DNA of 41,969 bases from Oligoflexus sp. (GTDB lineage Bacteria; Bdellovibrionota_B; Oligoflexia; Oligoflexales; Oligoflexaceae): positions 1 through 41,969 of the forward strand of contig JBGSTX010000124.1 of the NCBI GenBank assembly GCA_041736305.1. Direction: 5' to 3'. The position numbers and the translations under genes are program-made. The stretch's first letter is position 1. Each line of letters begins with the position of its first letter. This document shows positions 2,704 to 31,664 of this stretch, one piece after another. The notes under the pieces were generated by a model. The model saw nothing but the letters and a program-made list of their open reading frames with translations. It had not been told where the DNA came from and searched no databases.

Positions 2704-2889
2704 TTAGGAAAAAATCGCTGGTAGGAGAAAAGCTAGGGTGGCGAGAAAAGTAAAACCAATCCACATTCCGAAAACTGCCAGGGCTTGTTGCTTCTGCATG
2801 CGCTCGTGGGTTTCAGCAAACTGCTCAATCAAGCTGACTTCGTAAACGGCGCGACTACGGCTGGCCAAATAGGTGACCTTGGAGTTCAT
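2704..2889 (-). CDS. Small hypothetical membrane protein
   Basis: 61 aa, one C-terminal TM segment, GAGG upstream of ATG, fills an intergenic gap. Confidence 0.6.
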   Translation of the reverse strand: MNSKVTYLASRSRAVYEVSLIEQFAETHERMQKQQALAVFGMWIGFTFLATLAFLLPAIFS

Positions 2890-3116
2890 AGGATGCCTCG
2901 GATATTTGTTTTCTTGACGTGGCTGTCGTAACAGCGGGCAGAAGCTAAGTCAAATTATTTTTGGACCTCTGGAAAAAGCGGCTAAAAAATCCAAAGGTGC
3001 TCGTAAGATAGGAGGGGGTTCCAGCGCCTTTTTGCTTTGCAAAAATTGCGGTGCCACGTATCTTAAGCGATCAACCATCTATTGGCCCCCTGAGGGCGCG
3101 TGAAACCGAGTAGATC

Positions 3117-25812: not shown

Positions 25813-26994
25813 TCAACCGTCTTCACGAATATCATCCCGCGTTCGCCCTTCACGACCAGTGTCGCCGAGAAGGATGCCCTTGTAAGAGCGCCAGCGTCTT
25901 TCGTTGATACGGCCTTCGGAGAGTGCCTGGAGCACGGCACAGGATGGTTCGTCAATATGCCGGCACTCACGAAACTTGCAGTGAGGCATCAGTGAACGGA
26001 TCTCAATGAAGCAGTAGCCAAGCTCGATGGCAGTCCGCTCGCTCAAAACGAAACTTCGAATGCCCGGCGTATCAATTACCGAACCACCGCGACCGAGCTT
26101 GATCATGCTCGCGTAGGTGGTCGTATGCCGACCCTTGTAGAAGATCTCTGAATTAGGCTCGACTTCCTGCTCTATCTCTGGCCGGAACAGATTGACCAGT
26201 GACGACTTACCAACGCCTGAGTGGCCGCTGAGGATCGTAACTTTGCCGTCGAGCAATTCATGCAGCTCTTTGATCTCTGGCGAACGCCAGTTTTGAAACT
26301 CGACTTTAAGACTGATGGTTTTATAACCAAGCCCTCGATAGGTCTCAAGCTCCTTAGCGCAGCGCTCGCGGAATTCCTCGGTCTCGTTCTCAAGAAGGTC
26401 CTCTTTGTTGAGGACGATGATGGCCGGAATACCTTGCTCCTCTGCGAGCACTAGATAGCGATCGATGAGGCCCCATTTGACGAGAGGCGCCTGGTAGCTC
26501 GCGACGATGAGGAGCTGATCGACATTGCTCGCGAGAACGTGCTCGCGATCTTTTACGGCTGGATCACGCCGAGCTATCTGACTCTTTCGTGGCGATAAAT
26601 GCTCGATAACGCAGCAGGGAAGATCTGTACCCAGATCAGCTTCCCGCTCGTCAGTAGGTCTGCACAAGACGCGGTCCCCAACGGCTATCGTGTTGCGCTC
26701 ACCACGGCGGCTTTGGAGATGACGGCGCGCTACTGTCGCAAGCCAGACATCTCGGGTGTCTACATCACCGATTTGGCGTTCGGGAGATACAAAAGCATAT
26801 CGCTTGTGAACTTCGACCACGCGAGCCGGAAACCATTCAGACCGCTCTTCAGCAAAAATCCATTTGTCTTCCGCCAATTCAAACTGGGCGTCCTCGGCCT
26901 TATGTTTCCTGCGCTTGTCTCGACCCCGGCGAATCTTATCGAAGTTAACCGTCGTATCGGAGTCCTTATCCCCCTGATATTTCCACTTGCCCAT
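25813..26994 (-). CDS. rsgA: Ribosome small subunit-dependent GTPase A
   Basis: AVGDRV, SNVDQ, LNKED, GHSGVGKSSL, GRHTTT, DTPG, CKFRECRHIDEPSC zinc finger. Confidence 0.95.
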   Translation of the reverse strand: MGKWKYQGDKDSDTTVNFDKIRRGRDKRRKHKAEDAQFELAEDKWIFAEERSEWFPARVVEVHKRYAFVSPERQIGDVDTRDVWLATVARRHLQSRRGERNTIAVGDRVLCRPTDEREADLGTDLPCCVIEHLSPRKSQIARRDPAVKDREHVLASNVDQLLIVASYQAPLVKWGLIDRYLVLAEEQGIPAIIVLNKEDLLENETEEFRERCAKELETYRGLGYKTISLKVEFQNWRSPEIKELHELLDGKVTILSGHSGVGKSSLVNLFRPEIEQEVEPNSEIFYKGRHTTTYASMIKLGRGGSVIDTPGIRSFVLSERTAIELGYCFIEIRSLMPHCKFRECRHIDEPSCAVLQALSEGRINERRWRSYKGILLGDTGREGRTRDDIREDG

Positions 26995-29464
26995 GGCGAT
27001 CTTTATCCCTGCTGGTCGTCTTAAAAATGCGTTCGATGCTGCGGAGGGCATCCGCGGAGAGTAGGCGTTGCGAATTTTGAGCTAGTACGCCTACTCTTTC
27101 ATCAATGCGAAAGGACTTGTCGTCGACCGTGATCAATAAGCCTTTACGTTTAAGGAGCTGTATATGTTTTTGAATAAAAGTTTTTTCTACGATCTCAGGG
27201 TTATTGAGACCACTGAGAATTGCGAGCCTCTGCGCCATGCGATGACACTGCTGGAGAAACTCGTCGTTATCAACGAGACCGATTTGACTATGTTTAGCCA
27301 AAAGAACGGCGGTAATGATAAAGCGATCGAAAGTGAAACCTAGGGCCTGCGAGAGGATATCGAGAGCCACCGATTGATCTGACTGGCTCAAAGGCCGGTG
27401 GTAGAAGTCGTAACCGACCTTGCGCAAGAGCCCCAATTCAGCCATGGCATCGGCGTACTGTTGGACTACGTCTTCGATCTGTGACTCTTCCCAGCTTAGT
27501 GTCAATTCCTCACGAAGGATTCCATAGATTTCTGCGCAACCTCGTCGAAGGGAAAGCATATCAATCTGTTCGTGCTGCTGGAAAAAACGGGCTATCAGCG
27601 AAGGCAGAGCAAAGAGATGAATAACATTGTTGCGGTAATAGGATATCAACGCGCTGTCGATGTCATTGAGATAAACCACATCTCCAGCGGCATGATGAAA
27701 AGTTGAGAATATTCGAAGCTTTTCCACAGCAGCAAAAATCTCATCAGGATCCTCAACTACCACCTGAACATTAGGATGGTAGGGTAGTTTTTTATGCAGC
27801 AGGACCATCTGCTGAAGAAAAATAGCCAACTCATCTTTAGGCAGAGCTTTCTGCCAAGCTGAAAGAAGACCAACACCGACAAAGGAGACTGGATTGAGAA
27901 CCGCCGTCTGGTTCATGCGCCGTGCAATAAGGTGAGAAAGTTCGTGGACCTCTTGACTAAGCCAATCCGGACGCTCGTCATCGCTCTCTCGCCAGCCTGG
28001 TTGAGTGCTGTCGAGGAATTCTTCGAGAATAATGGGCTCGCCGTAGGAGACGTAGGCCTTGCCGTAATTAGCGCGCAAGAGTTTGCGTGCTTGAAGCAGC
28101 TGCAGCGCCGATTCTTTTTTCTTGGTCCCCCCGCTGAGCTCCTTGAGATAGCTCTTCACTTCCATGACCTTGTCATAACCCAAGTAGATGGGAACAATGG
28201 CGATGGGTCGAGTCGAGTTTCGCAAATAACTCTTCACCACCATGGAGAGCATACCGGTCTTCAAGGGCAGCAAACGGCCACTGCGACTTCGCCCGCCTTC
28301 GGGAAAGAAAGAAATCGGATAGCCATGAGTCAAGAGATAGTGAATGTACTCTTCGACAACGGCCGTATAGAGACGATTGCCTTGAAAAGAGCGTCGAATG
28401 AAAAAGGCTCCGCCGCGACGAATAAGCCAGCCCGCTGGAAAAAAATTCAGATTGATGCCGGCTGCCGTGTGAGGTGTGGGAAGCCCACTTTTATAGACGG
28501 TATAGTTAGCGAGCAGATAATCCAAATGGCTTCGATGCGTCGCGACATAGACGATTTCATAGTTTTGGGCAGCAAGCCGAGTCACGTTCTCAACATTGAT
28601 AATATCGACGCCTGAGAAAAGCTTGGTCCACAGCTTGCCTAGGAGGATCTCAAACATCCGCACCATGGAATAGGTTTGGTCAGCTGAAAGCTCGCGCACA
28701 TAGCTCCGGGCACGATTCTCAAGGGCCCTCATCACATCGACCTGACCCTTCGCTTCTTTTTCAATCTCGAGCCGCACCGGCCTGCCATTTGCCACGCGCG
28801 TGATGACCTGCTCCCGAACATAGAGCTTTTGGCCTAAGACTGTGTTGCGAACGCGGCGAAAGTGAATGCGGAGTATGCGCCGAATTTTGCGAGCAGCAAG
28901 ATCAGCGTCTTTCTCAGTGGCAAGGATATTGTCGACTTCGAAAGGTTTAGCGAAGTAAACGTTGTTGTTGCGTCCCTGGGCGAAAACTATGAAGAGCTTT
29001 TGGAGCCAGCCGGCGTCCTCTTCGTCGTTGAATATCAGTTTAAAAATTGAAGGCTCTTCGTTGCCAGGATCCTTGCCCCAAAAAGGTGAGACGGGAACGA
29101 TCAGCGCCTTCTGTCCGGTTTGTACCTGCACCTGCCGCACAAGATGCAAGAGAACTTGGCTGGGCCTGAGGCGACGAATGCGTTTAATGGGTCCGGTCTT
29201 TTCCAAAAAAAGACAGACCGCACGCCGCTTTCGATTGAAGTCGAGACCGAGATCGGGCTGAGGTAGTCCATGAACACGGCAATTCACAAGCAGTACCAGG
29301 TAGTCGATGATCGAGCGTTTCGGCAAGACATAGATCACAGGATCTTGGCCAAGTCCTAGATGCTCTTTTAAAGACTCCGGGTGCGCTTTGGTGTGAACCC
29401 ACAATAGGACGGGACGCAGCAGATAGGACAAAGCCAGATGTCCGAGACGTATCAGTGCTTTCAT
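26966..29464 (-). CDS. plsB: Glycerol-3-phosphate 1-O-acyltransferase PlsB
   Basis: HRSHLD (HxxxxD), AAGINLNF, GAFFIRRSF, FFPEGGRSRSGRLL; 832 aa. Confidence 0.93.
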   Translation of the reverse strand: MKALIRLGHLALSYLLRPVLLWVHTKAHPESLKEHLGLGQDPVIYVLPKRSIIDYLVLLVNCRVHGLPQPDLGLDFNRKRRAVCLFLEKTGPIKRIRRLRPSQVLLHLVRQVQVQTGQKALIVPVSPFWGKDPGNEEPSIFKLIFNDEEDAGWLQKLFIVFAQGRNNNVYFAKPFEVDNILATEKDADLAARKIRRILRIHFRRVRNTVLGQKLYVREQVITRVANGRPVRLEIEKEAKGQVDVMRALENRARSYVRELSADQTYSMVRMFEILLGKLWTKLFSGVDIINVENVTRLAAQNYEIVYVATHRSHLDYLLANYTVYKSGLPTPHTAAGINLNFFPAGWLIRRGGAFFIRRSFQGNRLYTAVVEEYIHYLLTHGYPISFFPEGGRSRSGRLLPLKTGMLSMVVKSYLRNSTRPIAIVPIYLGYDKVMEVKSYLKELSGGTKKKESALQLLQARKLLRANYGKAYVSYGEPIILEEFLDSTQPGWRESDDERPDWLSQEVHELSHLIARRMNQTAVLNPVSFVGVGLLSAWQKALPKDELAIFLQQMVLLHKKLPYHPNVQVVVEDPDEIFAAVEKLRIFSTFHHAAGDVVYLNDIDSALISYYRNNVIHLFALPSLIARFFQQHEQIDMLSLRRGCAEIYGILREELTLSWEESQIEDVVQQYADAMAELGLLRKVGYDFYHRPLSQSDQSVALDILSQALGFTFDRFIITAVLLAKHSQIGLVDNDEFLQQCHRMAQRLAILSGLNNPEIVEKTFIQKHIQLLKRKGLLITVDDKSFRIDERVGVLAQNSQRLLSADALRSIERIFKTTSRDKDRHGQVEISGG

Positions 29465-30318
29465 AGCTCGCCCAGCTCCAGATTATCAATCAGGCGCACC
29501 GAGCCGAGATAAGCAGCAACGAGAATCACAGCAGGCTTTTCTAGCTGATCGGGACTTTGTATTAAATCATCTCGGTAGCGAATCTCGGCGTACTCTAGCC
29601 TAAATCCCGCCGACTTCGCGAGCTCGCGCGTAAAGATTTCGAGCAGCTTGGCCTTTAGCTTTTCGCCTTTCTTATAGGCGACGTTCACAAGCTGCATAGC
29701 CCGGTATATTTGGATTGCCTCACTTCGCTCAGCGGAATTTAATCGAAGGTTGCGGCTACTCATAGCCAGACCGTCCTTCTCCCTTAGAGTGGCGATGCCT
29801 TCTATCGAGATATCGAAAAACAGATCAAGCACCATTTTCTTGATCAGTTGGTACTGTTGATAGTCTTTCTTGCCGAAGAGGGCGACGTGCGGCTGAACGA
29901 GATGGAAAAGCTTGGCGACAACAGTCAGCACACCCTGGAAGTGACCGGGGCGATAATGTCCGCAGAGTATCTCGGACATGCCTTCATTAAAAATATAGGT
30001 CTGATAGCCGGCTGGATACATGTCCGCGGCATTAGGGATGAATAAAGCATCAACCTTCGCCGCCTCCAATTTGGCGCTATCACCCTGCAGCATGCGGGGA
30101 TAGCTGGCGAAATCTTCCTTAGGCCCGAATTGCAGAGGATTGACGAATATACTCACGATGACGCGGTCGCAAAGTTCTTTAGCTCTCTTTACCAGGGCAA
30201 GGTGTCCGTCGTGAAGCGCTCCCATAGTCGGAACAAAAGCTATTTTTTGGCGCTCAGAGCGCCATTGTGAACAGGTTTTGCGGACCTCTTCGGGCGCGAT
30301 AATAGTCGTGATCGGCAC
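29461..30318 (-). CDS. panC: Pantoate--beta-alanine ligase
   Basis: FVPTMGALHDGH, SIFVNPLQF, RPGHFQGV, FGKKDYQQ, DGLAMSSRN, RLIDN. Confidence 0.97.
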   Translation of the reverse strand: MPITTIIAPEEVRKTCSQWRSERQKIAFVPTMGALHDGHLALVKRAKELCDRVIVSIFVNPLQFGPKEDFASYPRMLQGDSAKLEAAKVDALFIPNAADMYPAGYQTYIFNEGMSEILCGHYRPGHFQGVLTVVAKLFHLVQPHVALFGKKDYQQYQLIKKMVLDLFFDISIEGIATLREKDGLAMSSRNLRLNSAERSEAIQIYRAMQLVNVAYKKGEKLKAKLLEIFTRELAKSAGFRLEYAEIRYRDDLIQSPDQLEKPAVILVAAYLGSVRLIDNLELGEL

Positions 30319-30439
30319 GCGGTTCCTCTCAGCATAATGCCAAATGAAAGGGGCTCAAGAAAGTCTTGCTAGTATTACACTTTCTGAAAGAAGAGAGCAA
30401 ATGCTGGGGGAGGTGTGGAAGCGAGGGCTTAGCGGTCAG

Positions 30440-30590
30440 GAAAGATAGGTGGGGAGTCCTTTATAATCGCCATCTTGGCAATTCGGCTCTTCCTAAGCCT
30501 TGCACGTGGTTCGTCCGAACCTTTTCGGCTCCGTGGGGATCTTTATTCCAGATCCCTTCCTTGTCAATCCCATGAAGCAAGCTTCATACC
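30440..30590 (-). ncRNA. Candidate CsrB/RsmZ-like multi-GGA structured RNA (ends uncertain)
   Basis: 8 GGA motifs within 114 nt on the minus strand, three of them in hairpin loops; downstream of a sigma28-like motif; no credible ORF. Confidence 0.5.
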
Positions 30591-30591
30591 T
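30576..30591 (-). promoter_or_regulatory. Possible sigma54 promoter
   Basis: Minus strand AGGTATGAAGCTTGCT with GG-N10-GC and TTGCT; also forms a hairpin, so may be coincidental. Confidence 0.3.
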
Positions 30592-30594
30592 TAT

Positions 30595-30621
30595 CTTTCG
30601 GTAGGACTGGCCGGAACTTTA
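30595..30621 (-). promoter_or_regulatory. Putative sigma28 (FliA) promoter
   Basis: Minus strand TAAAGTTC-N11-ACCGAAAG versus consensus TAAAGTTT-N11-GCCGATAA. Confidence 0.55.
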
Positions 30622-30689
30622 GCGAGAAGTCTCTCGCCACAGAAGAACGGAGCCGAAAATAATTTGGCAGGACTTTAAAAATGGGATCT

Positions 30690-31664
30690 TTAGCGAAGAG
30701 CTTTCGGTGCTTCACGCTTCTTGGCAATCTCTACGTCTGAACCAGCAAAAGTAAAGCGCTTAGGCTCACCTTTTTTAACGTTAGCGCCGACGCGCTGTCC
30801 TTTGAAGTAAACTTCGACAGCTGCAGCGTTCTCCACATAGAGTTTGAGCTGCTCTTGGAATCCATAATGGTAGGTCTGTACCGTGAGTTTCTCAGTGCTC
30901 GGCTTTTCTTGATCCCGACCGACGGTGACTTCTACTGGCTCGAGGACTCGCATTTCTACGCTGAAAGTTCCCGCAGCATCTCGAATGGGAGGATTGCTCG
31001 CCACGGCAGCTCCTGCCACGACGCTGGTTGCTACGGTCTTTTCATTAACTTTTTCAGCAAGTTGTTGGACTGGACCCGTCGTAGGCGTATAGGTTTCTTC
31101 GACCTCTTGCACCGGTTCGGACCTTGGGATACTCGCTCGACTGTCCTGCTTCTCATTATAGGACCTGAGAAAGCTACTGCCGAGAACTAGGACGAGAAGG
31201 CCTGCGGCTATCAGAGCCAAGGGTTTGGTTTGCAAATAATGATGAGGGGCGAGCGATTTAAAGCGGCCTTTCCACTCATTGGGCTGAATTAACAAAACGC
31301 CCTTTTTCAGCTGCTGAAGCCGGCGCTCATCACGGCCGACCGCTAACTCTTCCGACGCTTTGCTCTGCACTATCAGACGTTCAAAACCCTCGAGGTATTC
31401 CGCGGGATTTTTACCATAGGCTTTGCATAGGTTGCGAATGAAACCACGGCCGAACATGGTTCCAGGCAAGAGGTTGATGCGTTCAGACTCCATCGCTTCG
31501 ATGAAGGGAGCTGAGATGCGCGTGGACATCGCCACACGCTCGATCGAAAAGCCAGCGGATTCACGGGCAGCCTTCATCATGGAGCCGAAAGTCTCACGCA
31601 CGACGGGAGTCGCACTCTGATCCTGCTGATTCGCTTCGTTCTGCTCGTTATCGGTCTTGATCAC
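30690..31664 (-). CDS. rodZ: RodZ-like HTH membrane protein
   Basis: FGSMMKAARE..TRIS..AMESE..LPGTMFGRGFIRNLCKAYG (HTH_25), one TM segment, C-terminal DUF4115-like region. Confidence 0.8.
   Translation of the reverse strand: MIKTDNEQNEANQQDQSATPVVRETFGSMMKAARESAGFSIERVAMSTRISAPFIEAMESERINLLPGTMFGRGFIRNLCKAYGKNPAEYLEGFERLIVQSKASEELAVGRDERRLQQLKKGVLLIQPNEWKGRFKSLAPHHYLQTKPLALIAAGLLVLVLGSSFLRSYNEKQDSRASIPRSEPVQEVEETYTPTTGPVQQLAEKVNEKTVATSVVAGAAVASNPPIRDAAGTFSVEMRVLEPVEVTVGRDQEKPSTEKLTVQTYHYGFQEQLKLYVENAAAVEVYFKGQRVGANVKKGEPKRFTFAGSDVEIAKKREAPKALR

Follow-up and report, generated by a model that had tools for sequence, protein, structure and literature searches.

A structured RNA with a predicted sigma-28 promoter in the Oligoflexales and its possible role as a decoy of the flagellin leader

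Two modes of control, considered mutually exclusive, have been assigned to the regulator CsrA: small RNA (sRNA) sponges act on it in Gammaproteobacteria, and in other bacteria a protein, FliW, does so. Of the sponges, CsrB, CsrC and the Rsm RNAs are represented by models in Rfam. FliA-dependent sRNAs, i.e., those read by the flagellar sigma factor sigma-28, are known as well, for example UhpU of Escherichia coli. According to a review, the presence of FliW is anti-correlated with that of BarA-UvrY, and the flagellin gene hag of Bacillus subtilis is repressed by CsrA at its Shine-Dalgarno (SD) sequence (PMC7652899). The flaA leader of Campylobacter jejuni, with GGA in two neighbouring loops separated by 21 nt, is a target of CsrA repression and, alongside FliW, also titrates CsrA (Dugar et al. 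2016, PMC4894983). Here, we analysed a stretch of 41,969 nt from Oligoflexus sp. (assembly GCA_041736305.1, contig JBGSTX010000124.1; the whole stretch is called the window), in which the gap between a RodZ-like gene and panC very likely holds an independent, sigma-28-driven gene for a structured RNA. This RNA represents a well-supported new family without a relative in Rfam, present in 73 genomes with one copy each. Our favoured reading, to which we give a rough probability of 0.35 to 0.4, is that the RNA acts through CsrA as a decoy of the flagellin leader.

The gap comprises 371 nt (30319-30689) and folds somewhat better than shuffled sequences (z = -2.4). The RNA is predicted on the minus strand, on which the order is RodZ-like gene, gap, panC and plsB, and spans about 150 nt (30438-30590), with the conserved core ending near 30438. 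A covariance model of 13 sequences of the genus (R1) matched positions 30435-30593 with 143.5 bits, and a core model from 53 sequences (R2) matched 30446-30563. Promoter type, fold, independence of the neighbouring genes, single copy and linkage to the flagellum each emerge from comparison among relatives, as detailed below. Rfam returned no match at gathering score in the whole window, and at E-values up to 10 the region 30250-30750 gave only a chance match of the plus strand to a viral element. The RNA strand itself, which an earlier note on this DNA had read as encoding a candidate sigma-28-driven CsrB/RsmZ-like sponge of CsrA, gave none. Literature searches on the genus and small RNAs, exclusive of supplementary files, found nothing related, and those on CsrA, FliW and sigma-28 and on FliA-dependent sRNAs returned cases from Campylobacter, Helicobacter, Bacillus and enterobacteria only.

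A coding reading of either strand was rejected, as none of the reading frames runs uninterrupted through the core in every one of the 13 members of the genus. 6S RNA, which resembles the present RNA in being a single-copy conserved RNA of about 150-190 nt, was also considered and rejected; the 6S RNA of the window's genome lies on another contig, and the RNA described here is multi-branched and not a rod with a central bubble. A scan of the gap for tRNA and tmRNA genes found none.

The predicted promoter occupies positions 30595-30621 of the minus strand, with a -35 box TAAAGTT (30621-30615) and a -10 box ACCGAAAG (30602-30595). We take TAAA, a spacer of 15 nt and an 8-mer with a CGA core to be the FliA/sigma-D consensus, with which both boxes and their spacing agree. 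A regular expression for the two boxes matched 33 of 34 loci from several families, 32 of them with the same spacing and one with a spacer longer by one base; the single locus without a match is N-masked at that place. The FliA-like promoter that the earlier note had proposed is thus widely retained among relatives, and the same motif precedes flagellin genes. Among 30 flagellin genes from five genomes of three families, none of them the window's genome, a relaxed expression with the 15-nt spacer matched 9 of the 30 upstream regions, compared to 0-2 for other spacers and 0-3 for the reverse complement. The strict expression had no match upstream of the eight flagellin-type genes of the window's genome. 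Genome-wide, however, the strict motif occurs there at 52 sites, against 15-31 for other spacings and scrambled controls, and fliA is encoded in the same genome. Twenty of the 52 sites were taken for a check of the regulon, and the first ten downstream open reading frames (ORFs) were compared to Pfam. They comprised one T2SSE/PilB-type ATPase, one OmpA-family protein, one weak cytochrome match and seven ORFs without a family. As these ORFs are not recognisably flagellar, they say little, either for or against the promoter call.

In E. coli, transcription from FliA promoters starts 18-22 bp from the promoter centre (10.1101/188474). Because of this distance, we infer a 5' end of the RNA at about 30586-30590, in agreement with an earlier guess near 30587. 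As a separate observation, the window's genome holds about 30 more strict sigma-28-type sites than the spacing controls predict (e.g., C10:7087, C49:5686, C49:7170 and C81:10700), which may represent an unexplored FliA regulon.

The predicted fold consists of seven helices, P1 to P7, all on the minus strand, whose coordinates were counted by hand on a sequence ruler and may be off by one base. P1 is a 5'-terminal hairpin (30572-30587) seen by RNAalifold in the 13 genus members and variable or absent in other families. The long-range helix P2 joins AGG (30561-30559) to CCT (30449-30447), is paired in 84.5% of cases and shows two-sided changes at two of its four pairs. A second long-range helix, P4, joins GGAG (30532-30529) to CTCC (30456-30453), with two-sided changes at all four pairs and 98.1% pairing; among homologues it alternates between GGAG/CUCC and GAAG/CUUC. 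The 3' strands of P2 and P4 together form a pyrimidine-rich segment (30446-30456), delineated by this covariation. Within this clamp, the hairpin P3 (gggatct...agatccc; 30536-30556) has two-sided changes at six of six pairs and a loop that is not conserved, and the hairpin P5 (ggttc-GGAc-gaacc; 30508-30521) varies in length and sequence, being missing or replaced by longer hairpins in other families. P6 (30485-30499) has five pairs, four of them with two-sided changes, and 98.9% pairing; its pentaloop reads AGGAA (30494-30490) here and A-N-G-A-N in the family consensus. P7 (30465-30483), with eight pairs and 98.1% pairing, presents the pentaloop AAGAU (30476-30472), for which the family consensus is A-N-G-A-G closed by C-G pairs. 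Its apical stem is nearly invariant, and P7 is the best-conserved part of the RNA. The loop centres of P6 and P7 lie 18 nt apart in the window, and the two hairpins abut in 53 of 53 aligned homologues. Their pentaloops are the only conserved exposed elements, conserved unpaired runs being 3-5 nt long.

Across the alignment of 53 sequences, the covariation covers 27 pairs in five helices, with 93.8% of cells paired and two-sided changes at 21 pairs. None of 500 shuffles reached these values, and sliding the 3' partner by 1-3 columns lowered pairing to 37-56%; since R1 had selected the sequences that MAFFT aligned, the alignment is biased towards the structure. Judging from these helices kept by compensatory changes, the element is a structured non-coding RNA. 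The three hairpins quoted in the earlier note (P3 at 30556-30536, P5 at 30521-30508 and P6 at 30499-30485) are all present, and P3 and P6 covary in relatives, as does P7.

The RNA adjoins a RodZ-like homologue in 26 of 26 loci and lies on its strand in 25. Downstream, panC follows on the same strand in 21 of the 26 loci and another gene in four. In the remaining one (L036; G016:C12, RNA at 27895-28050), the RNA together with its promoter points the other way while still lying between rodZ and panC, as though only the RNA gene had been inverted locally. One genome (G063) has lost the RNA and promoter with both the rodZ flank and a downstream conserved segment intact, and its three congeners carry the RNA. 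In several relatives, a hairpin followed by a T-run ends rodZ before the promoter (seen by eye and checked in L040). At the other end, a terminator-like hairpin follows 13 nt after the RNA in L048, and a stricter script found a strong hairpin with a T-run within 130 nt downstream in 12 of 67 loci. Taken together, these comparisons argue for a gene that is very likely independent of its neighbours and driven by sigma-28.

Two further observations concern the same flanks. In the window, a 6-bp hairpin stands on the minus strand (30622-30637) directly before the -35 box, at the place where relatives have the rodZ terminator, and has no T-run. In four loci of one genus (L043, L044, L046 and L158, the latter in G063), panC is missing from the gap and a short conserved segment precedes the next gene, which looks like plsB as judged by eye from its N-terminal translation.

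To the distribution of the RNA, a DNA search of 61 relatives gave a first outline, in which the gap was matched in 12 of 13 genomes of the genus and in none of 47 others. Within the genus, about 130-280 nt of the gap are 69-78% identical at the DNA level, with identities of 35-51% for the RodZ-like protein (full-length matches) and 58-68% for PanC. The 13 intergenic regions of the genus measure 368-494 nt and share three blocks, namely the promoter boxes, the core of about 155 nt and, after a variable C-rich spacer, a -35/-10-like block before panC. Model R1 found exactly one match in each of 22 of 22 family genomes and one each in 67 of 95 genomes of the order, with no match in 36 other genomes of the class. 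R2 recovered six of the 28 remaining genomes of the order. In total, the RNA occurs in 73 of 95 Oligoflexales genomes, always as a single copy, and none of the 36 genomes from elsewhere in the phylum carries it. When 185,579 species, each represented by one genome, were scanned with an exact IUPAC pattern, 34 stretches were returned, of which R2 confirmed 33. Since nearly all of these stretches bear the labels Oligoflexus, Oligoflexales or allied labels of Bdellovibrionota, we refer to the lineage as Oligoflexales. In Oligoflexus tunisiensis (L081), the RNA scores 99.5 bits.

Among the 95 genomes of the order, 84 encode csrA, 90 a FliA-family sigma factor and 81 flagellin, compared to 73 with the RNA. 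Flagellin is encoded by every one of the 73 carriers, and the RNA is missing from each of the 14 flagellin-less genomes; kin are not independent here, and the losses amount to about six lineages, two of them within genera. csrA is found in 72 of the 73 carriers, the sole exception being a genome that is 66% complete. Ten of the 14 flagellin-less genomes also are without csrA, and the five of these ten that were tested are all without fliW. By this profile, the RNA is tied to the flagellum, in agreement with its promoter type. As a side observation, the 14 flagellin-less genomes (G024, G025, G029, G039, G040, G042, G043, G048, G049, G053, G060, G063, G065 and G066) all keep a full-length FliA-family sigma factor, which, on gene content, must drive something other than flagella in these lineages.

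Beside fliA, the genome of the window encodes both csrA and fliW, the two other genes to which the earlier note had pointed. In this fragmented assembly, fliW lies on a different contig (C345) from csrA. The latter (G000:C291, 3621-3770) stands just downstream of a gene with a flagellin N-domain (2704-3084), probably a hook-associated protein.

Six genomes from three families, the window's among them, each have one flagellin orthologue with a sigma-28 promoter. The leaders of these six genes would form a 5' hairpin with the loops ACGAA, ACGAU, AUGAU, AUGAU, AUGAA and AUGAC, and, immediately ahead of the start codon, a short hairpin in which AGGAG would be exposed. Minimum-energy folds contain the 5' hairpin in five of the six leaders. 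As read from the sequences, the leader and the P6/P7 pair have the same two loop types in the same order. Other flagellin paralogues (G000:C129:2636, L179, L174, L192 and L187) have, by eye, a TGG-N9-TGC box upstream and not the sigma-28 motif. We take this box to be typical of sigma-54 promoters, and the 7-11 flagellin genes per genome seem to be split between two sigma classes.

Of the described systems, the flaA and hag leaders are similar to the RNA in several respects. Common to all are a promoter of the sigma-28/sigma-D type, a pair of adjacent loops spaced by about 18-21 nt, of which the second is SD-like, and an association with genomes that encode FliW, CsrA and flagellin; the flaA leader is itself an RNA antagonist of CsrA (PMC4894983), and both loop types recur in a flagellin leader of the window's relatives. 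Moreover, the P6 and P7 loops are separated by 18 nt, which is the spacing of two sites quoted as optimal for a CsrA dimer (PMC4894983). Unlike in the leaders, no coding sequence follows the window RNA, so that its second site overlaps no downstream SD sequence. Its loops are pentaloops with a free second position and not GGA hexaloops, and the two hairpins sit inside a larger covarying fold.

The GGA that CsrA might recognise is widely kept in P6, in 12 of 13 genus members and 37 of 66 homologues of the family (66 of the 67 could be parsed), and this loop reads C-AGGA(U/A)-G in 35 of the 66. P7 holds GGA in 27 homologues and both loops together do so in 19; in the window RNA, GGA is found in P6 only. 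Among the loop GGAs quoted in the earlier note, only that of P6 is widely kept, those of the P3 and P5 loops not being conserved even among the 13 genus members.

From these features, the following mechanism can be proposed. The RNA would be transcribed from its own sigma-28 (FliA) promoter late in flagellar assembly, alongside flagellin. Its long-range helices would clamp the G-rich 5' half to the C/U-rich 3' segment and leave the P6 and P7 loops exposed, which, 18 nt apart, would copy the two hairpin loops of the sigma-28-dependent flagellin mRNA leader. As a decoy of this leader, the RNA would take up the factor that binds there, most likely one CsrA dimer, and thereby act alongside FliW to relieve or tune how strongly flagellin and the other late flagellar messengers are repressed. 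Here we infer the transcription, the ends of the RNA, the binding of CsrA and the direction of the effect. A narrower link to CsrA, through one dimer-sized two-loop site like that of the flagellin leader, is plausible and unproven. We regard it as doubtful, though conceivable, that the RNA is an arm of the flagellin-FliW-CsrA partner switch, in which a sigma-28-dependent decoy would copy the leader hairpins and titrate CsrA.

Several observations weigh against a decoy that works through CsrA. CsrA is reported to require GGA (PMC4894983), and 21 of the 66 homologues have GGA in neither the P6 nor the P7 loop. The second loop position, corresponding to the first G of GGA, is free in both hairpins. 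Over 67 homologues, GGA was not enriched, with 380 motifs observed against 341 expected (mean z 0.36). On the side of the leader, the short AGGAG hairpin belongs to the minimum-energy fold in only one of the six cases. It keeps AGGAG in six of six genomes, including those in which the loops of the sRNA have lost GGA, and thus the sRNA loops do not follow the true candidate site. Likewise, a comparison across these six genomes did not show the free position of the P6 and P7 loops to co-vary with the loops of the flagellin leader in the respective genome. Furthermore, the conserved junction nucleotides and the long-range clamp exceed what a two-loop decoy needs. In the order, four flagellin-less genomes (G065, G066, G039 and G048) have kept csrA and have no RNA, and eight flagellated, csrA-positive genomes gave no RNA match; some of these eight are incomplete, and divergence beyond the reach of the models is possible. 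Because the RNA has been lost together with flagellin, FliW and CsrA, the profile backs a flagellar role and not CsrA specifically; as a comparison of gene content, it agrees with a CsrA link but cannot prove one, since CsrA and the flagellum are not told apart by it.

Part of this evidence would be accommodated by a sigma-28-dependent structured RNA of the flagellar regulon with a partner other than CsrA, be it another RNA-binding protein, the anti-SD sequence of the ribosome, contacted by P7 through its SD-like loop, or a ligand. In that case, the resemblance to the flagellin leader would stem from a factor other than CsrA that both share, or from common descent via duplication of a flagellin promoter and leader. 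The nearly invariant stem and loop of P7 and the conserved junctions resemble a specific tertiary fold or protein site, and the loop consensus is A-N-G-A-N, not GGA. The first hairpin of the flagellin leader is without GGA in all six genomes, the RNA tracks flagellin rather than csrA in the four genomes named above, and by eye the bases next to the promoter look similar in the sRNA and in one flagellin leader. We nevertheless hold this explanation to be rather unlikely. It names no candidate partner, csrA accompanies the RNA in 72 of 73 carriers, and CsrA is, as far as PMC7652899 and PMC4894983 go, the only factor known, in other phyla, to bind flagellin leaders at paired hairpin loops.

Alternatively, the RNA could be a base-pairing sRNA of the late flagellar class that represses or activates mRNAs via an exposed seed. 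FliA-dependent sRNAs that tune flagellar synthesis are known, and C. jejuni CJnc170 (FlmR) is similar in that a late-class flagellar promoter precedes a small RNA expected to feed back on flagellar synthesis (PMC11187230). The sigma-28 promoter and the flagellar linkage fit such a role, and pairing of SD regions with the C/U-rich 3' segment is conceivable. However, P2 and P4, both covarying, tie up this segment, and nowhere are 7 nt or more of conserved sequence single-stranded. Base pairing is thus a weak and, in our estimate, improbable explanation, because no conserved unpaired stretch exceeds about 5 nt. Unlike CJnc170 and the E. coli sigma-28 sRNAs, which act or are thought to act by base pairing, the window RNA has no long conserved single-stranded seed; it also shares no sequence or Rfam relation with them and is restricted to the Oligoflexales.

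A CsrB/RsmZ-like sponge, which would sequester several CsrA dimers on many GGA sites, had been suggested by the eight GGA motifs of the minus strand in 30457-30570. All eight are present (starting at 30570, 30560, 30555, 30549, 30532, 30516, 30493 and 30459), three of them in hairpin loops, and the density in these 114 nt is about 4.6 times that of the whole window. Yet 2000 dinucleotide-preserving shuffles gave 5.5 ± 1.4 motifs (P = 0.07); the count by itself is unremarkable in a strand region rich in G and A, and GGA exceeds the dinucleotide expectation neither in the window nor in the 67 homologues. Two of the motifs are paired, caaGGA and cacGGA supplying the 5' sides of P2 and P4, the long-range helices that covary; those in the P3 and P5 loops are unconserved, and at most two conserved exposed sites are left. 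With CsrB/CsrC and RsmX/Y/Z of Gammaproteobacteria, the RNA has in common that it is non-coding, that many members present A(N)GGA-type loops (37 of 66 in P6 and 27 of 66 in P7), that the P6 of many members has the form of the sponge repeat, and that csrA is in the genome. It differs by the lack of an Rfam match on the RNA strand at E-values up to 10, by having two conserved exposed loops and not many, by a GGA content neither enriched nor invariant and by a compact core clamped by long-range helices. Moreover, its host has FliW, and its promoter is of the sigma-28 type and not GacA/UvrY-dependent, no search for a GacA box or for barA/uvrY having been made. Of the earlier proposal, the sigma-28-driven independent RNA is therefore retained, and the multi-site sponge is highly improbable.

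Equally remote is the fallback of the same proposal, a cis-acting leader or riboswitch of the panC-plsB operon, or else an element of the rodZ 3' untranslated region: the RNA does lie between both genes on the same strand in most loci (of 26 loci, 21 have panC downstream and 25 have rodZ upstream), and no terminator is visible in the window, but a leader of panC is disfavoured because the downstream gene varies (four loci are without panC), the RNA is inverted in L036, its loss in G063 is clean and terminators stand in relatives, including between rodZ and the promoter, while the RNA has its own conserved sigma-28 promoter, panC is preceded by a separate conserved promoter-like block, and the RNA is lost with the flagella where rodZ is kept. 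The pan RNA motif of Rfam, which is found upstream of pantothenate genes, resembles the RNA in its position upstream of panC; it gave no match at E-values up to 10, nor did any other Rfam cis-regulator.

The block before panC (30372-30400, minus strand) consists of TTGCTC, 17 nt and TAATAC, preceded by TG, and stands about 55 nt before the gene. It is kept in 13 of 13 gaps of the genus, with the same block in L004-L015, and from its sequence is probably the promoter of panC itself, although it is below the threshold of a consensus promoter scan. Between this block and the RNA lies a C-rich, G-poor spacer (30401-30437, minus strand). In the window, C outnumbers G by 23 to 8 in the first 60 nt downstream of the RNA; across the 14 Oligoflexus loci, this segment has 15-25 C and 4-12 G. 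A consensus scan found no intrinsic terminator in the gap of the window, as had been noted before by inspection. Since the downstream 60 nt are C-rich and G-poor, a Rho-dependent stop is possible in Oligoflexus.

As for the flanking genes, the RodZ-like gene (30690-31664, minus strand), an ORF of 324 residues, sits upstream of the RNA. Its product matches HTH_25 (E = 8e-15), and no further RodZ domain was detected with Pfam. panC, encoding pantoate-beta-alanine ligase, occupies 29461-30318 on the minus strand (Pantoate_ligase, E = 9e-100) and is followed by plsB (26966-29464), with the domains GPAT_C and Acyltransferase.

FliA-dependent sRNAs and RNA antagonists of CsrA are both known kinds of regulator, and their combination would be new if the decoy reading holds. 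In that case, the RNA would be the first sRNA-type antagonist of CsrA in a lineage that bears FliW, and the CsrA proteins of this lineage would accept A-N-G-A loops without a full GGA. A leader-like RNA driven by the flagellar sigma factor in genomes with both FliW and CsrA makes the question of whether the two modes of CsrA control are exclusive directly testable. Regardless of CsrA, our analysis adds an RNA family from a barely studied phylum with a clear regulatory address, the late flagellar class.

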